From a virus (taxonomy: Duplodnaviria > Heunggongvirae > Uroviricota > Caudoviricetes): a stretch of DNA of 15,002 nt. Positions 3,684-15,002 of this stretch are shown one piece after another (positions within the stretch are counted from its first letter, which is position 1; each line of letters opens with the position of its first letter). The translations under genes were made by a program, and so were the position numbers. The stretch lies in the IMG/VR virus record IMGVR_UViG_2579779049_000022; one strand, given 5' to 3'. The notes under the pieces were generated by a model. That model was not told where the DNA came from. It ran no database searches and saw only the letters and a program-made list of their open reading frames with translations.

Positions 3684-3878
3684 TTATACGGTTGGTGAGG
3701 TGTCAGCTTCTTCTACCAGCTTTTCCAGTTCATCCAGCTTTCGGGAAAGAATTTCACCAAACAGATGAAGTTCTGCATCTGCTGTAATCGGGATTGGAAC
3801 AAATCGTATTCCACTTCTGGCAAGTTGATTTGCGATTTCCAGACACTGCCTTAATTCAACTGGTGATGCCTTTGTCAA
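3684..3878 (-). CDS. Hypothetical acidic small protein; start uncertain (TTG 3878, or ATG 3980 with 125 bp overlap of the methyltransferase gene)
   Basis: Protein-like ORF (...VELRQCLEIANQLARSGIRFVPIPITADAELHLFGEILSRKLDELEKLVEEADTSPTV) in a different frame from the MT-A70 3' end. No convincing SD at either candidate start. Confidence 0.35.
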   Translation of the reverse strand: MTKASPVELRQCLEIANQLARSGIRFVPIPITADAELHLFGEILSRKLDELEKLVEEADTSPTV

Positions 3879-4482
3879 CGTCGTTTTTTCGCTTATTGGT
3901 TTTCTCCAGAAATTTAACAATACCCGGAACCATCTCAATGGATGGTGTGCCGCATTGGTTACCCCATACATCAAATCCATGCGAGGTGTGGCGGGCGAAC
4001 AGTTCTATCCGGGGAACATCGCCAAGAAGTTGCACAAGTTTTTCTCGAGCCATATCCGGCTTGCGGGAGTGATCAAGGCGCGGTGCAGTGAATGACTGGA
4101 TTATTCCGGCGTTAATGCGTTCGGGCAGATTTCCTTTCACTGCAAAAAGGCAGTCTTCGCTGTTAGCGCGAGTGGTGCTACCCATACCCATGACCAGCTT
4201 GTCGGTCTGTCTTTTCCCGCATTTGTTCCAGGTTAATCCTTTCATCGTCACCAGACGAAAGCCCCACGCTTCTACAACCTTCAATGCTTCAAGTGGTTGT
4301 GTAGGCACCCACCACATAGACAACAGGCAATTATCGGCTGCCAGTTCCCATACCGGGAGGCGGCAGATATCCAGAAGACTCATGACCGGATATTTAAAAC
4401 TTGCACCGCGTTGACCATCGGTTGCTTTGTCGCGGAATGTCCAGGGGGGATCTGCGTAAATGAGGGTGTATTTTTTCGTCAT
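3856..4482 (-). CDS. MT-A70 family DNA N6-adenine methyltransferase (phage Dam-like)
   Basis: N-terminal LIYADPPW (DPPW catalytic motif) and C-terminal FDVWGNQ, characteristic of the MT-A70 family. ATGA start/stop overlap with the upstream gene at 4479-4482. Confidence 0.85.
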   Translation of the reverse strand: MTKKYTLIYADPPWTFRDKATDGQRGASFKYPVMSLLDICRLPVWELAADNCLLSMWWVPTQPLEALKVVEAWGFRLVTMKGLTWNKCGKRQTDKLVMGMGSTTRANSEDCLFAVKGNLPERINAGIIQSFTAPRLDHSRKPDMAREKLVQLLGDVPRIELFARHTSHGFDVWGNQCGTPSIEMVPGIVKFLEKTNKRKNDVDKGITS

Positions 4483-5633: not shown

Positions 5634-5656
5634 ATCACCAGTTAGTGGCTGGTGAT
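5634..5656. promoter_or_regulatory. Palindrome ATCACCAG-N7-CTGGTGAT in the 5' region of the antirepressor-like gene (candidate operator)
   Basis: Perfect 8-bp inverted repeat read directly. It lies between a TTGACA hexamer (minus strand, 5661-5666) and the gene's RBS. Confidence 0.3.
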
Positions 5657-5959
5657 CGGGTGTCAACTAGAGCCTTCAAAGATGCTCCGGGCATATTCCC
5701 CTTGCGGGTATTGTATTACGCCTCTCCACCCGACCTTTGTACGGATGTGACTATGCCAAATTGCAGGCATAAAAAAGCCGCAAAGCTATCGGGTGCGGAT
5801 GACCGCTTTGAAGTTCTAGTGCGGTCAGTATGCGATAGCTCTGGCGGATTTGTCAAATCATGTAGGCCTTATCTTGCTGTAAGCCGCGCCATTCGGGCTT
5901 TTCCCCAGATTTGGGGGAAACTATCTGCGAAGTATTCACCTTTGACGGCAAGTTGCAGG

Positions 5960-11663: not shown

Positions 11664-12089
11664 TCAATGTACTGCCACAGCATTTCCTGCCGGGCCACCA
11701 CGGTTCATCTGATTGAAACCGGCGATTGCCACTGCGACAAAATCATCAGCGTCTCTCACCAGTCGCTCCCGCGTCTCCACCAGCTCCCGAAAATAAGCTG
11801 AACTGTGGCTGCGCATTCTGGCCACCAGCAAAGGTGGCATTGCCTTTTCGATCGCTGGTAACAACGCCTGAATTTTTTCAACTGCATCAGGGGTGTCTTT
11901 CTCTACCCAGCGGAAAATTTTCTGGGTATTGCGAGCCAGGGCTTCCGGATGGCTGTCGTCATACAGTTCAGGAAACGTCATACCCAACTCAAAATAAGCC
12001 TGGGTTATTCCAGCTGCTGGAACTTTTTCGCCATCAGGACGCGCCCAGGCATTCATCGCCATGCGGATGTGTTCATGCTTGATTTTCAT
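11664..12089 (-). CDS. ydaT: YdaT-like prophage protein (CII-position regulator)
   Basis: N-terminal MKIKHEHI... matches recalled Rac YdaT. Sits directly downstream of the Cro-like gene with 17 bp overlap; AGGAG RBS 8 nt upstream of the ATG. Confidence 0.6.
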   Translation of the reverse strand: MKIKHEHIRMAMNAWARPDGEKVPAAGITQAYFELGMTFPELYDDSHPEALARNTQKIFRWVEKDTPDAVEKIQALLPAIEKAMPPLLVARMRSHSSAYFRELVETRERLVRDADDFVAVAIAGFNQMNRGGPAGNAVAVH

Positions 12090-12354
12090 GAATCAAGCTC
12101 CTAGTAAGTGGTTGTGTTAACGTTTTGGTATCTTCCAGCTCGGGCCAAATATTCATCCAATCAAAAGGCCTTAGTTGCTGACGTGTAACTTCACCATTAC
12201 TGGCTCGCTCAATAAGGACACATAACGATGCCCCTAACATTTGACCTTTACTCAATGCCTTTCTTAGATAACCGATGCTAGTACCACACTCACATGCAAA
12301 CATACGCTGTTCATCTGACGAAAGAGAATTGAGAAATATTCTTAATTCTTCCAT
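12073..12354 (-). CDS. ydaS: YdaS-like Cro-type HTH regulator (first gene of the rightward-equivalent early operon)
   Basis: Strong RBS AAGGAG 5 nt upstream of the ATG. Motif ...CGTSIGYLRKAL...NGEVTRQQLRP resembles the YdaS/Cro-like HTH family. Divergent from the repressor gene. Confidence 0.65.
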   Translation of the reverse strand: MEELRIFLNSLSSDEQRMFACECGTSIGYLRKALSKGQMLGASLCVLIERASNGEVTRQQLRPFDWMNIWPELEDTKTLTQPLTRSLIHENQA

Positions 12355-12453
12355 AGCTACTCCTTAGTAAACACAGCAAGAATACCCACAGGTAAACAAA
12401 AGTCAATACCCTTGGGTTGTTTACCTTGCGGTAATCGCATCTATTATTTACCT
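12355..12453. promoter_or_regulatory. Immunity-switch intergenic region: divergent promoters with operator-like inverted repeats
   Basis: 15-bp inverted repeat CCCACAGGTAAACAA (12385-12399) / TTGTTTACCTTGCGG (12417-12431), 13/15 matches. Central near-palindrome ACCCTTGGGT (12406-12415). Minus-strand promoter candidate TTGACT(12401-12406)-16 bp-TATTCT(12379-12384). TATTAT hexamer at 12442-12447, 6 bp upstream of the repressor ATG. Confidence 0.6.
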
Positions 12454-12873
12454 ATGGACAAATATGAATTTAGACGACAACAACTCATCAAAATTCGTGA
12501 TGAGAAATGCGATGGTAAAGCGGTTAACGTGGCCAGAAAGATCGGTCGCGAGCCTTCTTATGTATCAAGAATGTTGTACCCAGAGGGGAAAAAAGGAAAA
12601 AAACGGATCGCTGATGATATGGTGGAGATTATAGAAGAGTCCTTTGGGTTACCCCGGGGATGGATGGATGGTATCGTTTCATCATCAACGAACACAGCCT
12701 CCAATTATGAAACAAGGGTTCTAACGCCACGACAACGTATTTTTTTAGATCTCTTAGACGAACTGCCAGAAAGTGAAGCGGATAACTTATTAAAAACTCT
12801 TGAAGAGAAAAAACAGTATTACAATATGATCTACGAAGAAATCCGTAAAAAGAAAGCACAAAACGCATCATAA
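12454..12873 (+). CDS. Prophage repressor, DicA/RacR-like HTH protein (no S24 peptidase domain)
   Basis: HTH segment AVNVARKIGREPSYVSRML. C-terminal ...ELPESEADNLLKTLEEKK resembles recalled DicA ...ALPESEQDTQLAEM. Divergent from the Cro-like gene. ATG at 12454 preferred over upstream TTG; no SD, so possibly leaderless. Confidence 0.65.
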   Translation: MDKYEFRRQQLIKIRDEKCDGKAVNVARKIGREPSYVSRMLYPEGKKGKKRIADDMVEIIEESFGLPRGWMDGIVSSSTNTASNYETRVLTPRQRIFLDLLDELPESEADNLLKTLEEKKQYYNMIYEEIRKKKAQNAS

Positions 12874-12911
12874 CTCACCAAACAACCAGTCACCAGTTAA
12901 GACACATCAAA

Positions 12912-12956
12912 AAATTACCCATGGGTATTTACTTTTTAAATACCCATGGGTATCCT
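12912..12956. promoter_or_regulatory. Twin perfect palindromes TACCCATGGGTA (12916-12927, 12941-12952) forming one extended inverted repeat; candidate OL-type operators and/or terminator hairpin
   Basis: Read directly. The sites are separated by TTTACTTTTTAAA and followed by T-rich TCCTTCCTTTC. A TTTACT...TATCCT promoter-like pair overlaps them. A related half-site lies in the 12355-12453 switch region. Confidence 0.55.
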
Positions 12957-13138
12957 TCCTTTCATACCAACCCACCCCGTCCCACAGAACGCAGGGCAAT
13001 ACTTCGAGTTACCAGGCAGTGGTCAGGGGGTAAGTAGCCAGCCCGAGGCGTAAGAACATGACGGCAGGGTTCAACTTTAATAACTATGCAGCAGGTTTTT
13101 GTTCCGCTACCCCGGCGTTAAGGGGAAATGAGGTCAGC

Positions 13139-13291
13139 ATGGATACTATCGATCTTGGCAACAGCGAATCTCTGGTATGCGGCGTGTTTCCCAACCAGGA
13201 CGGTACGTTTACCGCGATGACGTATACCAAAAGTAAAACGTTTAAAACCGAAGCTGGCGCGCATCGCTGGTTAGCAAGAAACTCCGACTGA
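13139..13291 (+). CDS. YdfA/YdaF-like small prophage protein (50 aa)
   Basis: RBS GAGGT 4 nt upstream of ATG 13139 (the track ORF begins earlier without signals). Product MDTIDLGNSESLVCGVFPNQDGTFTAMTYTKSKTFKTEAGAHRWLARNSD. First gene after the repressor, as ydfA is after dicA in Qin. Confidence 0.55.
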   Translation: MDTIDLGNSESLVCGVFPNQDGTFTAMTYTKSKTFKTEAGAHRWLARNSD

Positions 13292-13302
13292 TGAGGTTGA
13301 CG

Positions 13303-13941
13303 ATGGAATTTAAAGATTTACCTCCTTCAATCCAGGAGATTGCAGCACACACACTTCGTCATCGTCTGAACGAACTTGAATTGGAATCGGTAACGAAAAA
13401 AGACACTGATAATATGGCTCGTAATGTGCGCGATGCGTTTACCGGATTGTATTTCTGTGCGTCTATAAATAAACACGACTCAGAGAGTGTGGCAAATAAA
13501 ATTGCAGAAACGACAGCGCAAAACATCAATACGAAACCAACGGAAGAAGAAATTGATCAGTTTGCTCATGATGCTGGTTTAAAAAACAAGAAAGAAAAAT
13601 CGCCATATGCGGGGAACATGTTTGTTTATGACAATCTCATCAGAATTCGTGGCGAAATTCCGGCGGAATACCTGGCAAGAGTCCATCAGGCATTGCTTAA
13701 AAATTTGGAAACAGAATTATTTGATGGCAACACTAACGGTTTCTTCATGGTATCAGGCCTTGATAAAGACTGGGATGCAGAAAAACGCTGGAATGTTGCT
13801 ACATGGTTATTCAGTAACAGAGCCGCTGCACTGGAAGCTTCGGCATGTATTTGCGGCCTGTTCTTAACAGACCACAAATATAATCTGGATGTGTACAGTT
13901 ATATTTACGCTGAACACGGTCCACTCTGGATTGACTGGTAA
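13303..13941 (+). CDS. Hypothetical protein (212 aa), AT-rich cargo gene in the repressor-side operon
   Basis: RBS GAGGT 5 nt upstream of ATG 13303. Codons are A/T-rich compared with neighbours. No recognisable motif. Confidence 0.55.
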   Translation: MEFKDLPPSIQEIAAHTLRHRLNELELESVTKKDTDNMARNVRDAFTGLYFCASINKHDSESVANKIAETTAQNINTKPTEEEIDQFAHDAGLKNKKEKSPYAGNMFVYDNLIRIRGEIPAEYLARVHQALLKNLETELFDGNTNGFFMVSGLDKDWDAEKRWNVATWLFSNRAAALEASACICGLFLTDHKYNLDVYSYIYAEHGPLWIDW

Positions 13942-14151
13942 TTATAAGGAAACACCAGCAGGGCCGCGGCGACCAACAGAACGATTAAAATCAATAATGC
14001 CATTATAAAGGACATTATTTAATTTATCGTCGAATGCTGATTCTGTGAGCCTCAACTCTGAATGAGTTTTTAATAACCCTGATTGCCTGAGTTGATTTAC
14101 CAGGCATTCAATCTGTTTTTCAATAAGCGGATTTCTTTTTTTGTTTGGCAT
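13942..14151 (-). CDS. Hypothetical small protein (69 aa), convergent partner of 13303-13941
   Basis: Strong RBS GGAGGA 4-5 nt upstream of ATG 14149-14151. Lys-rich N-terminus MPNKKRNPLIEKQIECLVNQLRQSG. Its stop abuts the stop of the plus-strand gene. Confidence 0.45.
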   Translation of the reverse strand: MPNKKRNPLIEKQIECLVNQLRQSGLLKTHSELRLTESAFDDKLNNVLYNGIIDFNRSVGRRGPAGVSL

Positions 14152-14488
14152 TTTATCCTCCATTGAGGTTCTGGGTTAAAAATGGAGACCAACACGCTGT
14201 CACGTGTGGTCGTGCGCCGGACACGGATAAGAATCCGGTACTGACAGTTTACTGAAAGGATATTTCCCTGAAAAGTCAGGGCATAACGCGAAAGCGTACG
14301 GCGAAGCTCTTTCCCTTAGAAGGCTTGTCGTTAGATTTCTTCGAACGTGCGCTTCCGGTTGTGGCACTCCGCGAAATGGCGCGGCGGTAAGTATGGCGGG
14401 GTTATTCCTTCCCCGTTGAGGACACCGGGTTGTCAGGTTGACCATACGCTTAAGTGACAACCCCGCTGCAACGCCCTCTGTTATCAAT

Positions 14489-14541
14489 TTTCTGGTGACG
14501 TTTGGCGGTATCAGTTTTACTCCGTGGCTGCTCTGCCGCCC
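14489..14541 (+). ncRNA. dicF: DicF small regulatory RNA (ftsZ-targeting sRNA of Qin-type prophages) with intrinsic terminator
   Basis: TTTCTGGTGACGTTTGGCGGTATCAGTTTTACTCCGTGGCTGCTCTGCCGCCC followed by TTTTT matches recalled E. coli DicF (53 nt) with about one substitution. Lies upstream of dicB as in Qin. Confidence 0.8.
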
Positions 14542-14721
14542 TTTTTAAAGTGAATTTTGTGATGCGGTGAATGCGGCTAAGCGCACGCGGAACAGTTAAA
14601 ACAAGCGGTCTTTTACGGGCGTAACGGGAATGCTCTGTATCCGGCGTTAATTGTTAACTGGTTAACGTCACCTGGAGGCACCAGGCACTGCATCACAAAA
14701 TTCATTGTTGAGGACGCGATA

Positions 14722-14910
14722 ATGGAAACGTTATTACCAAACGTTAATACGTCTGAAGGTTGTTTTGAAATTGGTGTCACTATCAGTAACCCTGTATTTA
14801 CTGAAGATGCCATTAACAAGAGAAAACACGAACGGGAGCTATTAAATAAAATATGCATTCTTTCAATGCTGGCCCGTTTACGTCCGATACAAAAAGGATG
14901 CTGGCAATGA
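14722..14910 (+). CDS. dicB: Cell-division inhibitor DicB
   Basis: 62 aa product METLLPNVNTSEGCFEIGVTISNPVFTEDAINKRKHERELLNKICILSMLARLRPIQKGCWQ closely matches recalled DicB. RBS GAGGA 7 nt upstream. Confidence 0.85.
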   Translation: METLLPNVNTSEGCFEIGVTISNPVFTEDAINKRKHERELLNKICILSMLARLRPIQKGCWQ

Positions 14911-15002
14911 ATACAGCATTTGCACTTGTTCTGACAGTTTTTCTTGTTTCCGGAGAGCCAGTTGATATTGCAGTCAGTGTTCACAGGACAATGCAGGAGT
15001 GT
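14907..15002 (+). CDS. ydfD: YdfD-like small membrane/lysis protein, N-terminal part (runs off window)
   Basis: ATG overlaps the dicB stop (ATGA). Encodes MNTAFALVLTVFLVSGEPVDIAVSVHRTMQEC, matching the recalled YdfD N-terminus with a hydrophobic segment. Confidence 0.6.
   Translation, partial: MNTAFALVLTVFLVSGEPVDIAVSVHRTMQEC

Follow-up and report, generated by a model that had tools for sequence, protein, structure and literature searches.

A convergent gene pair of undescribed families as variable cargo in the early-left operon of DicF/DicB lambdoid prophages

Introduction

Among described prophage systems, superinfection exclusion by sieB is among the closest in layout to the gene pair considered here, a 212-amino-acid (aa) gene and a convergent 69-aa gene located between a ydfA-like gene and dicF in a 15,002-nucleotide stretch of viral DNA (IMG/VR record IMGVR_UViG_2579779049_000022; this whole stretch is referred to below as the window). 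As in P22 and lambda, sieB is a prophage-expressed gene, and an escape function is encoded by the phage itself. In the Rac prophage (L295, NC_000913.3 1418405-1419311) the gene order is racR-ydaG-ydaF, where ydaF is a DUF1391 gene, with sieB on the opposite strand overlapping the ydaF 3' end, and then kilS-kilR. Phage vB_EcoS-666R9 has the same ydaF/sieB layout. In both, sieB is the opposite-strand gene that immediately follows the DUF1391 gene of a repressor-controlled early-left operon; the 69-aa gene has the same position and orientation and therefore sits in the sieB slot. The series ydaF, sieB, kilS (a small RNA, sRNA) and kilR (a division inhibitor) in Rac parallels ydfA, the 69-aa gene, DicF and dicB in the window.

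A second described arrangement is found in phi80, where the immune gene tai, expressed constitutively from the prophage, lies on the opposite strand within a lytic operon, and that operon also carries ati, the gene for its cognate inhibitor. The pair is inherited as one, and the two proteins bind (PMC11364771). That paper cites Rostol et al. 2024 for further defence/counter-defence pairs located in noncontiguous operons. The likeness is that an oppositely transcribed gene interrupts the operon encoding its partner, as it does in the window and in the Salmonella loci described below.

Accessory genes at the lambdoid immunity region are likewise represented by rexAB of lambda and paaR2-paaA2-parE2 of CP-933P. 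Both rexAB and paaA2-parE2 are placed after the repressor gene and before OL, and the paaA2-parE2 cargo is carried on the repressor transcript (PMC8630535), as rexAB is, whereas the pair considered here lies beyond OL-like operators. In the Qin prophage, ydfABC-dicF-dicB is transcribed from dicBp, a promoter between dicA and ydfA that DicA represses 22-fold and that is considered the analogue of PL (10.1101/2023.04.14.536235). The interval from ydfA to the region preceding dicF in this K-12 dicB operon holds ydfB and ydfC, which are unrelated in sequence to the 212-aa/69-aa pair. Both ydfB and ydfC read in the sense direction. An opposite-strand gene is absent from this interval in K-12, which nevertheless retains part of the leader that precedes such genes elsewhere.

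Results

From sequence comparison, the cassette in the window is best explained as one of the alternative alleles at a hypervariable locus for accessory genes, which lies in the PL-like early-left operon of DicF/DicB lambdoid prophages. The window is from a lambdoid E. coli prophage, and O111 chromosomes match it with 100% identity over positions 12900-14600. From the list of open reading frames (ORFs) and the sequence itself, the 212-aa gene occupies 13303-13941 (+) and the 69-aa gene 13942-14151 (-); the genes are convergent and their stop codons abut with zero gap. Identical calls were made by the NCBI pipeline (PGAP/RefSeq) on the O111 chromosome (WP_000394546, 212 aa; WP_001133037, 69 aa). 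This validated the two ORFs proposed in the initial annotation of the window, and their placement was also correct: they are flanked by a ydfA-like DUF1391 gene (13139-13291, +; Pfam DUF1391 6.5e-28, also called by PGAP; 91% DNA identity to K-12 ydfA), which is the first gene of the early-left operon, and by the DicF sRNA (14490-14541, +; Rfam RF00039, 75 bits). The strong ribosome-binding sites (RBSs) proposed for both genes are present, with GAGG 6 nt before the ATG at 13303 and GGAGGA 5 nt before the ATG at 14151. The K-12 Qin alignment covers only 13101-13284 and 14211-15002 of this region, showing that 13285-14210 replaces ydfB-ydfC. The pair had also been described as lower in GC than its flanking genes. 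This is the case for the immediate flanks (212-aa gene, 41.2%; 69-aa gene, 37.1%; ydfA, 49.0%; pre-dicF region, 53.0%; window, 46.8%) but not for the wider region. The repressor, cro-like and dicB genes are equally AT-rich (38-40%), and the composition of the pair is therefore unexceptional for its surroundings.

The suggestion of variable cargo at a constant site was upheld. Across 80 dicF-anchored viral contigs, the interval from ydfA to pre-dicF had at least ten alternative fillings. It could be empty, hold the 444 bp of ydfB-ydfC (the commonest form), or measure 410, 493, 591, 667, 705, 805, 919 (the cassette here), 1034 or 1077 bp, and matches to the window in the phage database were restricted to the cassette flanks. 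The interval consists of two slots, each with its own conserved 5' end. Proteins encoded in the sense slot share a helical start of ~55 aa beginning MEFKDLP and then continue into many different C-termini, while the genes found in the antisense slot (64-211 aa) are unrelated to one another, each lying behind a conserved leader and RBS. In the window this leader occupies 14152-14274 (-) and includes the GGAGGA RBS, a CCGGA..TCCGG hairpin at 14217-14238 and a candidate promoter. Alignments showed that the leader is common to unrelated cargo genes and to the Salmonella homologues of the 69-aa gene; two sequences in one alignment, L164 and L190, had been taken from the wrong strand and are disregarded.

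Genes in the antisense slot begin with one of two conserved in-frame leaders, ...MEDKM... or ...PQEGEM.... Examples are found in L164 (same contig as L081, gene 3826-4092, -), L233, L234, L190, L167, L188, L172, L075 and L156. One cargo protein of this slot is GhoS-like (Pfam 21.2 bits), and others are coiled-coil zinc-ribbon proteins of 143-211 aa and a membrane protein of 106 aa. Ten alternative cargo proteins of the slot gave no PADLOC match.

Within this variable locus the two genes behave as a unit. In IMG/VR, a full-length 212-aa gene adjoins the 69-aa gene in 71 of 74 loci, and in the other three a frameshifted copy lies beside an intact 69-aa gene; the surrounding immunity regions differ among these loci. 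In 5,426 complete E. coli genomes, DNA encoding the C-terminal domain (C-domain) of the 212-aa protein was detected at 751 places in 600 genomes, and the 69-aa gene at 744 places in 597 genomes. The pair is thus present in ~11% of complete E. coli genomes, mostly Shiga toxin-producing strains, including O157:H7 Sakai, O111, O121, O145 and O26. In Sakai the pair corresponds to ECs2211 and ECs2212, which belong to prophage Sp11.

More distant relatives were identified in Salmonella-type prophages. A profile search of 1.84 billion representative proteins returned just 48 relatives of the 212-aa protein, nearly all of them matching its N-terminal domain (N-domain) only. Two distant full-length relatives of the C-domain were the only ones found, P0177 (286 aa, with an HTH_3 insertion) and P0188 (220 aa), at 27-30% identity; the remaining C-domain matches were fragments or a frameshifted copy from the close E. 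coli family. The P0177 and P0188 genes are located in Salmonella-type prophages with a switch composed of int, a helix-turn-helix (HTH) repressor and Cox. To these we added the genes facing three further Salmonella homologues of the small protein. In all 13 Salmonella-type loci read (L277-L288) the large gene is faced by a gene of 64-69 aa, with 3' ends that overlap or abut. The small proteins are 44-52% identical to the 69-aa protein, with invariant SGLLK and RRGPAGV-L motifs, and homology between the E. coli and Salmonella families was detected by BLASTP (1e-13 and 4e-15) and by PHROG models. Since the Salmonella large proteins have a different N-terminal part, the C-domain is the part that travels with the small protein. 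The same tail-to-tail pairing on unrelated E. coli and Salmonella prophage backbones confirms that the pair is a unit, and in the loci examined the 69-aa family was never found without an adjoining C-domain gene, either intact or frameshifted.

The converse does not hold. Intact 212-aa genes persist beside a deleted 69-aa gene in the P0046 and P0052 clusters and in L075. Carriers examined, other than those bearing the frameshifts, include one cryptic prophage and the defective Sp11. In loci with the 'WIDWFKG' variants of the 212-aa gene (L289 3137-3300; L291 3137-3300; L075 4547-4786) the 69-aa gene has an internal deletion that spares the leader, the start codon and the last few codons. Next comes a second leader, which precedes a different antisense cargo gene.

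The families themselves proved to be undescribed, as had been supposed. Neither protein matched Pfam, NCBIfam, PADLOC (PADLOC-DB v2.0.0) or PDB sequences, and the only PHROG matches were to families of unknown function (phrog_2151 for the 212-aa protein, phrog_4274 for the 69-aa protein). The pair is annotated only as hypothetical, with 'Ybl81' as the one name used by a source, and the literature searched contains no main-text mention of Ybl81 or of ECs2211/ECs2212. A tblastn search of 50,697 phage records found no deposited phage genome with the 69-aa gene, and two wider scans of genome contigs gave no matches. Profile, sequence and fold searches also gave no homology of the 212-aa protein to a housekeeping or structural phage protein, and confirmed that neither protein has a recognisable domain.

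Both genes are real coding genes under purifying selection: median dN/dS is 0.23 in the 69-aa gene and, within the 212-aa gene, 0.18 in the C-domain and 0.38 at the N-terminus. The 212-aa protein consists of the shuffled MEFKDLP N-domain (codons 1-~55), a linker and an alpha/beta C-domain (codons ~98-212, 13594-13938); N-domain types are shuffled independently of the C-domain. In its AlphaFold model (predicted local distance difference test, pLDDT, 64.5) the N-terminal half is helical and the C-domain has the order beta-beta-alpha-beta-beta-alpha-beta. The 69-aa protein was modelled as a hairpin of two helices (pLDDT 76.2), and the protein has an invariant C-terminal RRGPAGV-L tail. Fold searches with the two models returned nothing significant. 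A Prp-like protease reading of the 212-aa protein was rejected, as the Cys and His are not conserved in the Salmonella homologues, and no catalytic residues are common to the E. coli and Salmonella C-domains. Neither protein has a transmembrane segment, the feature sought as a test for likeness to SieB (maximum Kyte-Doolittle hydropathy over 19 aa, 0.22).

The first ~55 residues of the 212-aa protein (MEFKDLP...NVRDAFTGLY; window 13303-13467) form a separate N-module that is fused to dozens of unrelated C-termini in proteins of 42-286 aa. Examples are L081 3499-3837, L165, L167, L180, L188, L190, L208 and L234, and proteins P0160-P0203. The module matches four further PHROGs and is present in Shiga toxin (Stx) phages at ~42% identity.

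We compared the operon layout with K-12 Qin and Rac. A repressor gene, operators, the DUF1391 gene, DicF and DicB follow in order on one strand, which is the arrangement of a Qin/Rac-type dicB (kil) early-left operon. The repressor is a DicA/CI-like protein of 139 aa (12454-12873, +; phrog_5736 'transcriptional regulator' 4.7e-70, with a weak NCBIfam DicA match in the C-terminal half). Directly after its stop codon and before ydfA, the 12-mer TACCCATGGGTA occurs twice as a perfect palindrome, at 12916 and 12941 (12916-12927 and 12941-12952). A pattern search also identified two-mismatch variants, TACCCACAGGTA and TACCCTTGGGTT, between the cro-like and repressor genes (12383-12418). There are no other matches with two or fewer mismatches in the 15-kb window, so that all copies adjoin the repressor gene. 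Judged by sequence and position, the palindromes on either side of this gene are predicted OL- and OR-type operators. Hexamers resembling a promoter overlap the OL pair (-35 TTTACT 12928-12933, -10 TATCCT 12951-12956; 8 of 12 matches, read by eye), and the OL-like segment as a whole (12916-12956, +) is, by equivalence with Qin dicBp, a candidate promoter of the PL/dicBp type. The hairpin at the OL pair may also end the repressor transcript.

The initial annotation had the pair co-transcribed with the lysogenic repressor. This was not supported, because two operator palindromes and a promoter-like site separate the repressor stop codon from ydfA. The 212-aa gene would therefore lack a rexAB-like linkage to the repressor transcript and, located behind OL-like operators, would by equivalence with Qin dicBp be an early gene, expressed on derepression. 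The operon continues beyond the cassette to dicB, which encodes a cell-division inhibitor (14722-14910, +; ORF, PGAP dicB; 92% DNA identity to K-12). Loci L291-L294 carry 212-aa homologues together with a paaR2-paaA2-type immunity region in which a gene of a toxin-antitoxin (TA) antitoxin family follows the repressor (1164-1962), showing that cargo on the repressor transcript and cargo in the PL operon can coexist in one prophage.

Expression data were available for the Sakai copy of the 69-aa gene from strand-specific RNA-seq and ribosome profiling (RIBO-seq) of uninduced O157:H7 Sakai (PMC5597208 S2 Table), which lists ECs2212 among the translated short genes of this strain. In lysogeny broth (LB), ECs2212 had 46.2 reads per kilobase per million (RPKM) by RNA-seq and 34.0 by RIBO-seq, with a coverage of 0.71; in brain heart infusion (BHI) the corresponding values were 23.9, 24.8 and 0.73. 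The dicB gene (ECs2214) in LB had an RNA-seq RPKM of 6.9, a RIBO-seq RPKM of 1.5 and a coverage of only 0.07. The difference between ECs2212 and dicB indicates that the 69-aa gene is an independent expressed unit within a sense operon that is nearly silent. The proposal of expression without induction thus holds for the 69-aa gene, which is both transcribed and translated. A candidate promoter for the 69-aa gene, TTTTCA-17-TAAACT (-35 14274-14269, -10 14251-14246, -; 8 of 12 matches, unflagged by the promoter scan), lies just upstream of the conserved hairpin, and alignment showed AT-rich sequences resembling a -10 element at this position in the Salmonella loci. The sole consensus promoter match near the gene overlaps its start codon and cannot serve it.

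The right flank of the cassette is a structured non-coding element of ~200 nt just upstream of DicF, identified from alignments and without an Rfam family, as is the cassette itself. It occupies 14282-14489 (+) in the window and recurs in L277 (6180-6392), L283/L284 and L002 (2374-2583). A near-invariant core is accompanied by variable hairpins whose pairing is kept by compensatory changes (five pairs altered on both sides), and G-U pairs favour the + strand. The element is ~80% identical in the Salmonella Cox-type prophages in which Rfam finds no DicF. A portion is shared with phages P1 and P7, and P1 records mark a 'dicF-like region' there. The element might serve in processing or antitermination of the early-left transcript.

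On the other side of the repressor gene, and divergent from it, is a cro-like (YdaS-type) regulator gene (12073-12354, -; Pfam YdaS_toxin 8.9e-06; phrog_35 'transcriptional repressor'; PGAP 'transcriptional regulator'). Between DicF and dicB there is a sub-threshold Rfam match to STnc100 (14553-14699, +; 34.5 bits against a gathering score of 47, E 1e-5). Matches above the gathering threshold elsewhere in the prophage were sRNA-Xcc1 (65 bits; 5646-5735, -) and a tRNA (998-1069, -). In the O111 record, the annotation farther upstream includes three tRNAs and an IS66 element, and the window may therefore differ from that record outside 12900-14600.

Discussion

The pair is most simply classed as accessory prophage-hotspot cargo, probably a defence-type gene with its cognate partner; the kind is known and the families are new. 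The model that we favour, at a probability of roughly 0.35, is that of a 'noncontiguous operon' in which a 69-aa exclusion factor is expressed in the lysogen and its cognate partner, the 212-aa protein, early in lytic development. The 69-aa protein, made in the lysogen, would act in superinfection exclusion or defence, or would otherwise inhibit phage development. The 212-aa protein would be made only after derepression, and its C-domain would neutralise or redirect the 69-aa protein so that the resident prophage could develop, a form of self-immunity comparable to SieB/Esc and Tai/Ati. Head-on transcription from PL might in addition turn the 69-aa gene down. The patterns of gene loss fit this model, as a 212-aa partner left alone would be harmless and would persist, and the carriers examined include defective prophages.

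Several observations weigh against this model. Profile, sequence and fold searches gave no resemblance to known exclusion, defence, anti-defence or toxin families, and confidence in the two structure models is low to moderate (pLDDT 64.5 and 76.2). The linkage of the two genes in E. coli could reflect mere adjacency and is weak evidence alone. The datasets examined gave no expression value for the 212-aa gene, and the state of the operon was judged from dicB. The Sakai copy is in Sp11, whose repressor is reported to be disrupted (PMC2669165), so that 'uninduced' may not equal 'repressed'. The promoter scan found no consensus sigma-70 promoter for the 69-aa gene, and the promoter of ECs2212 was placed 213 bp upstream by BPROM (PMC5597208). 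The comparison with SieB is also imperfect: the 69-aa protein is helical and soluble, unlike SieB, which is found in the membrane and has ~160-190 aa.

The closest described systems differ from the pair in other respects as well. There was no Pfam, PHROG or NCBIfam SieB match for either protein and no fold similarity, and Esc is an internal product of sieB itself, whereas here the 212-aa candidate partner has a gene of its own, on the other strand. In Tai/Ati one gene is expressed in the lysogen and its partner only in lytic growth; for the pair here, the corresponding observation is that ECs2212 is on while dicB is near silent, in the prophage whose repressor is reportedly disrupted. Tai/Ati is located in a Q-dependent late operon and Tai, of 26 kDa, blocks tail assembly, whereas the pair here is in an early-left operon and its opposite-strand gene is small. 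Homology to Tai/Ati was unsupported by the tblastn search of phage records, in which the 69-aa protein had no match and the 212-aa protein matched Stx phages through its N-domain only, the presence of phi80 in that collection being unconfirmed. No similarity to ParE, PaaA2 or Rex was found, although L291-L294 combine a PaaA2-type region with a 212-aa homologue.

Of the alternatives, the TA-like module considered in the initial annotation survives best, but we judge it unlikely. The C-domain of the 212-aa protein would here be an effector that arrests growth, in a TA or abortive-infection module, when the early operon fires, and the constitutively made 69-aa protein its antidote; the reverse is conceivable. 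Such a module would account for a small and a large partner kept as a pair across backbones, for the constitutive expression of the small protein and for its stronger conservation (44-52% identity, against 27-30% for the C-domain), and it would have toxic operon neighbours in DicB and DicF. The immunity region of a related prophage does include a true TA system (PMC8630535). The genes are, however, convergent, where a type II TA system is an autoregulated bicistron of co-directional genes in which the antitoxin usually comes first, and neither protein has homology to a toxin or antitoxin family in Pfam, NCBIfam, PADLOC or PDB sequences. Several lineages (the P0046 and P0052 clusters and L075) keep the 212-aa gene intact after internal deletion of the 69-aa gene, and either gene can be intact beside a deleted or frameshifted partner, whereas a toxin gene is not expected to stay intact without its antitoxin. 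Together with the translation of the 69-aa gene while dicB is nearly silent, this makes classical TA a poorer fit than an exclusion factor with a cognate partner.

A role in regulating the genetic switch is more doubtful still. Antisense transcription, the 69-aa protein or both would damp leaky dicF/dicB expression, and the 212-aa protein would be an early regulator with a C-domain controlled by the 69-aa protein. Consistent with this, transcription of the 69-aa gene runs counter to the PL-type transcript, at a point upstream of dicF/dicB, and the scan found no terminator between the two genes; the pair is within the first few genes after the switch in both contexts, directly after cox in Salmonella, where P0177 also has an HTH_3 insertion beside its C-domain. 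Most members of the family, including that in the window, nevertheless have no DNA-binding motif, the fold matches are non-significant and the model is weak. The slot is empty or filled by unrelated genes in similar prophages, which argues that the pair is dispensable for the switch. Equally doubtful is the possibility that a MEFKDLP early gene and independent cargo of the sieB slot are neighbours without functional coupling: two independently variable slots with their own conserved 5' ends, the occurrence of the 212-aa gene without the 69-aa gene and an E. coli linkage that adjacency alone explains are all in line with it, but the tail-to-tail pairing recurs in Salmonella at 27-52% protein identity, with another N-domain and on another backbone, and the 69-aa family was always beside a C-domain gene in the loci examined.

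If the noncontiguous-operon model is correct, the 212-aa and 69-aa proteins would be a new protein-family pair among the few prophage defences that carry their own self-immunity. As a tentative extension of the model, the two slots of the ydfA-dicF (in Rac, ydaF-kilS) interval of DicF/Kil-type prophages might be a hotspot of many unknown gene families, storing counter-defence genes (sense) and defence genes (antisense), with this pair as an unrecognised prophage immunity system. The segment from the DUF1391 gene to the pre-DicF RNA element would then be an easily recognised locus to mine for defence and counter-defence genes. The hotspots of P2 and P4 have been mined for defence genes in a comparable way. 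Any gene in the antisense slot reads head-on into the DicF/DicB transcript, and this bears on the expression of DicF and DicB in pathogens.

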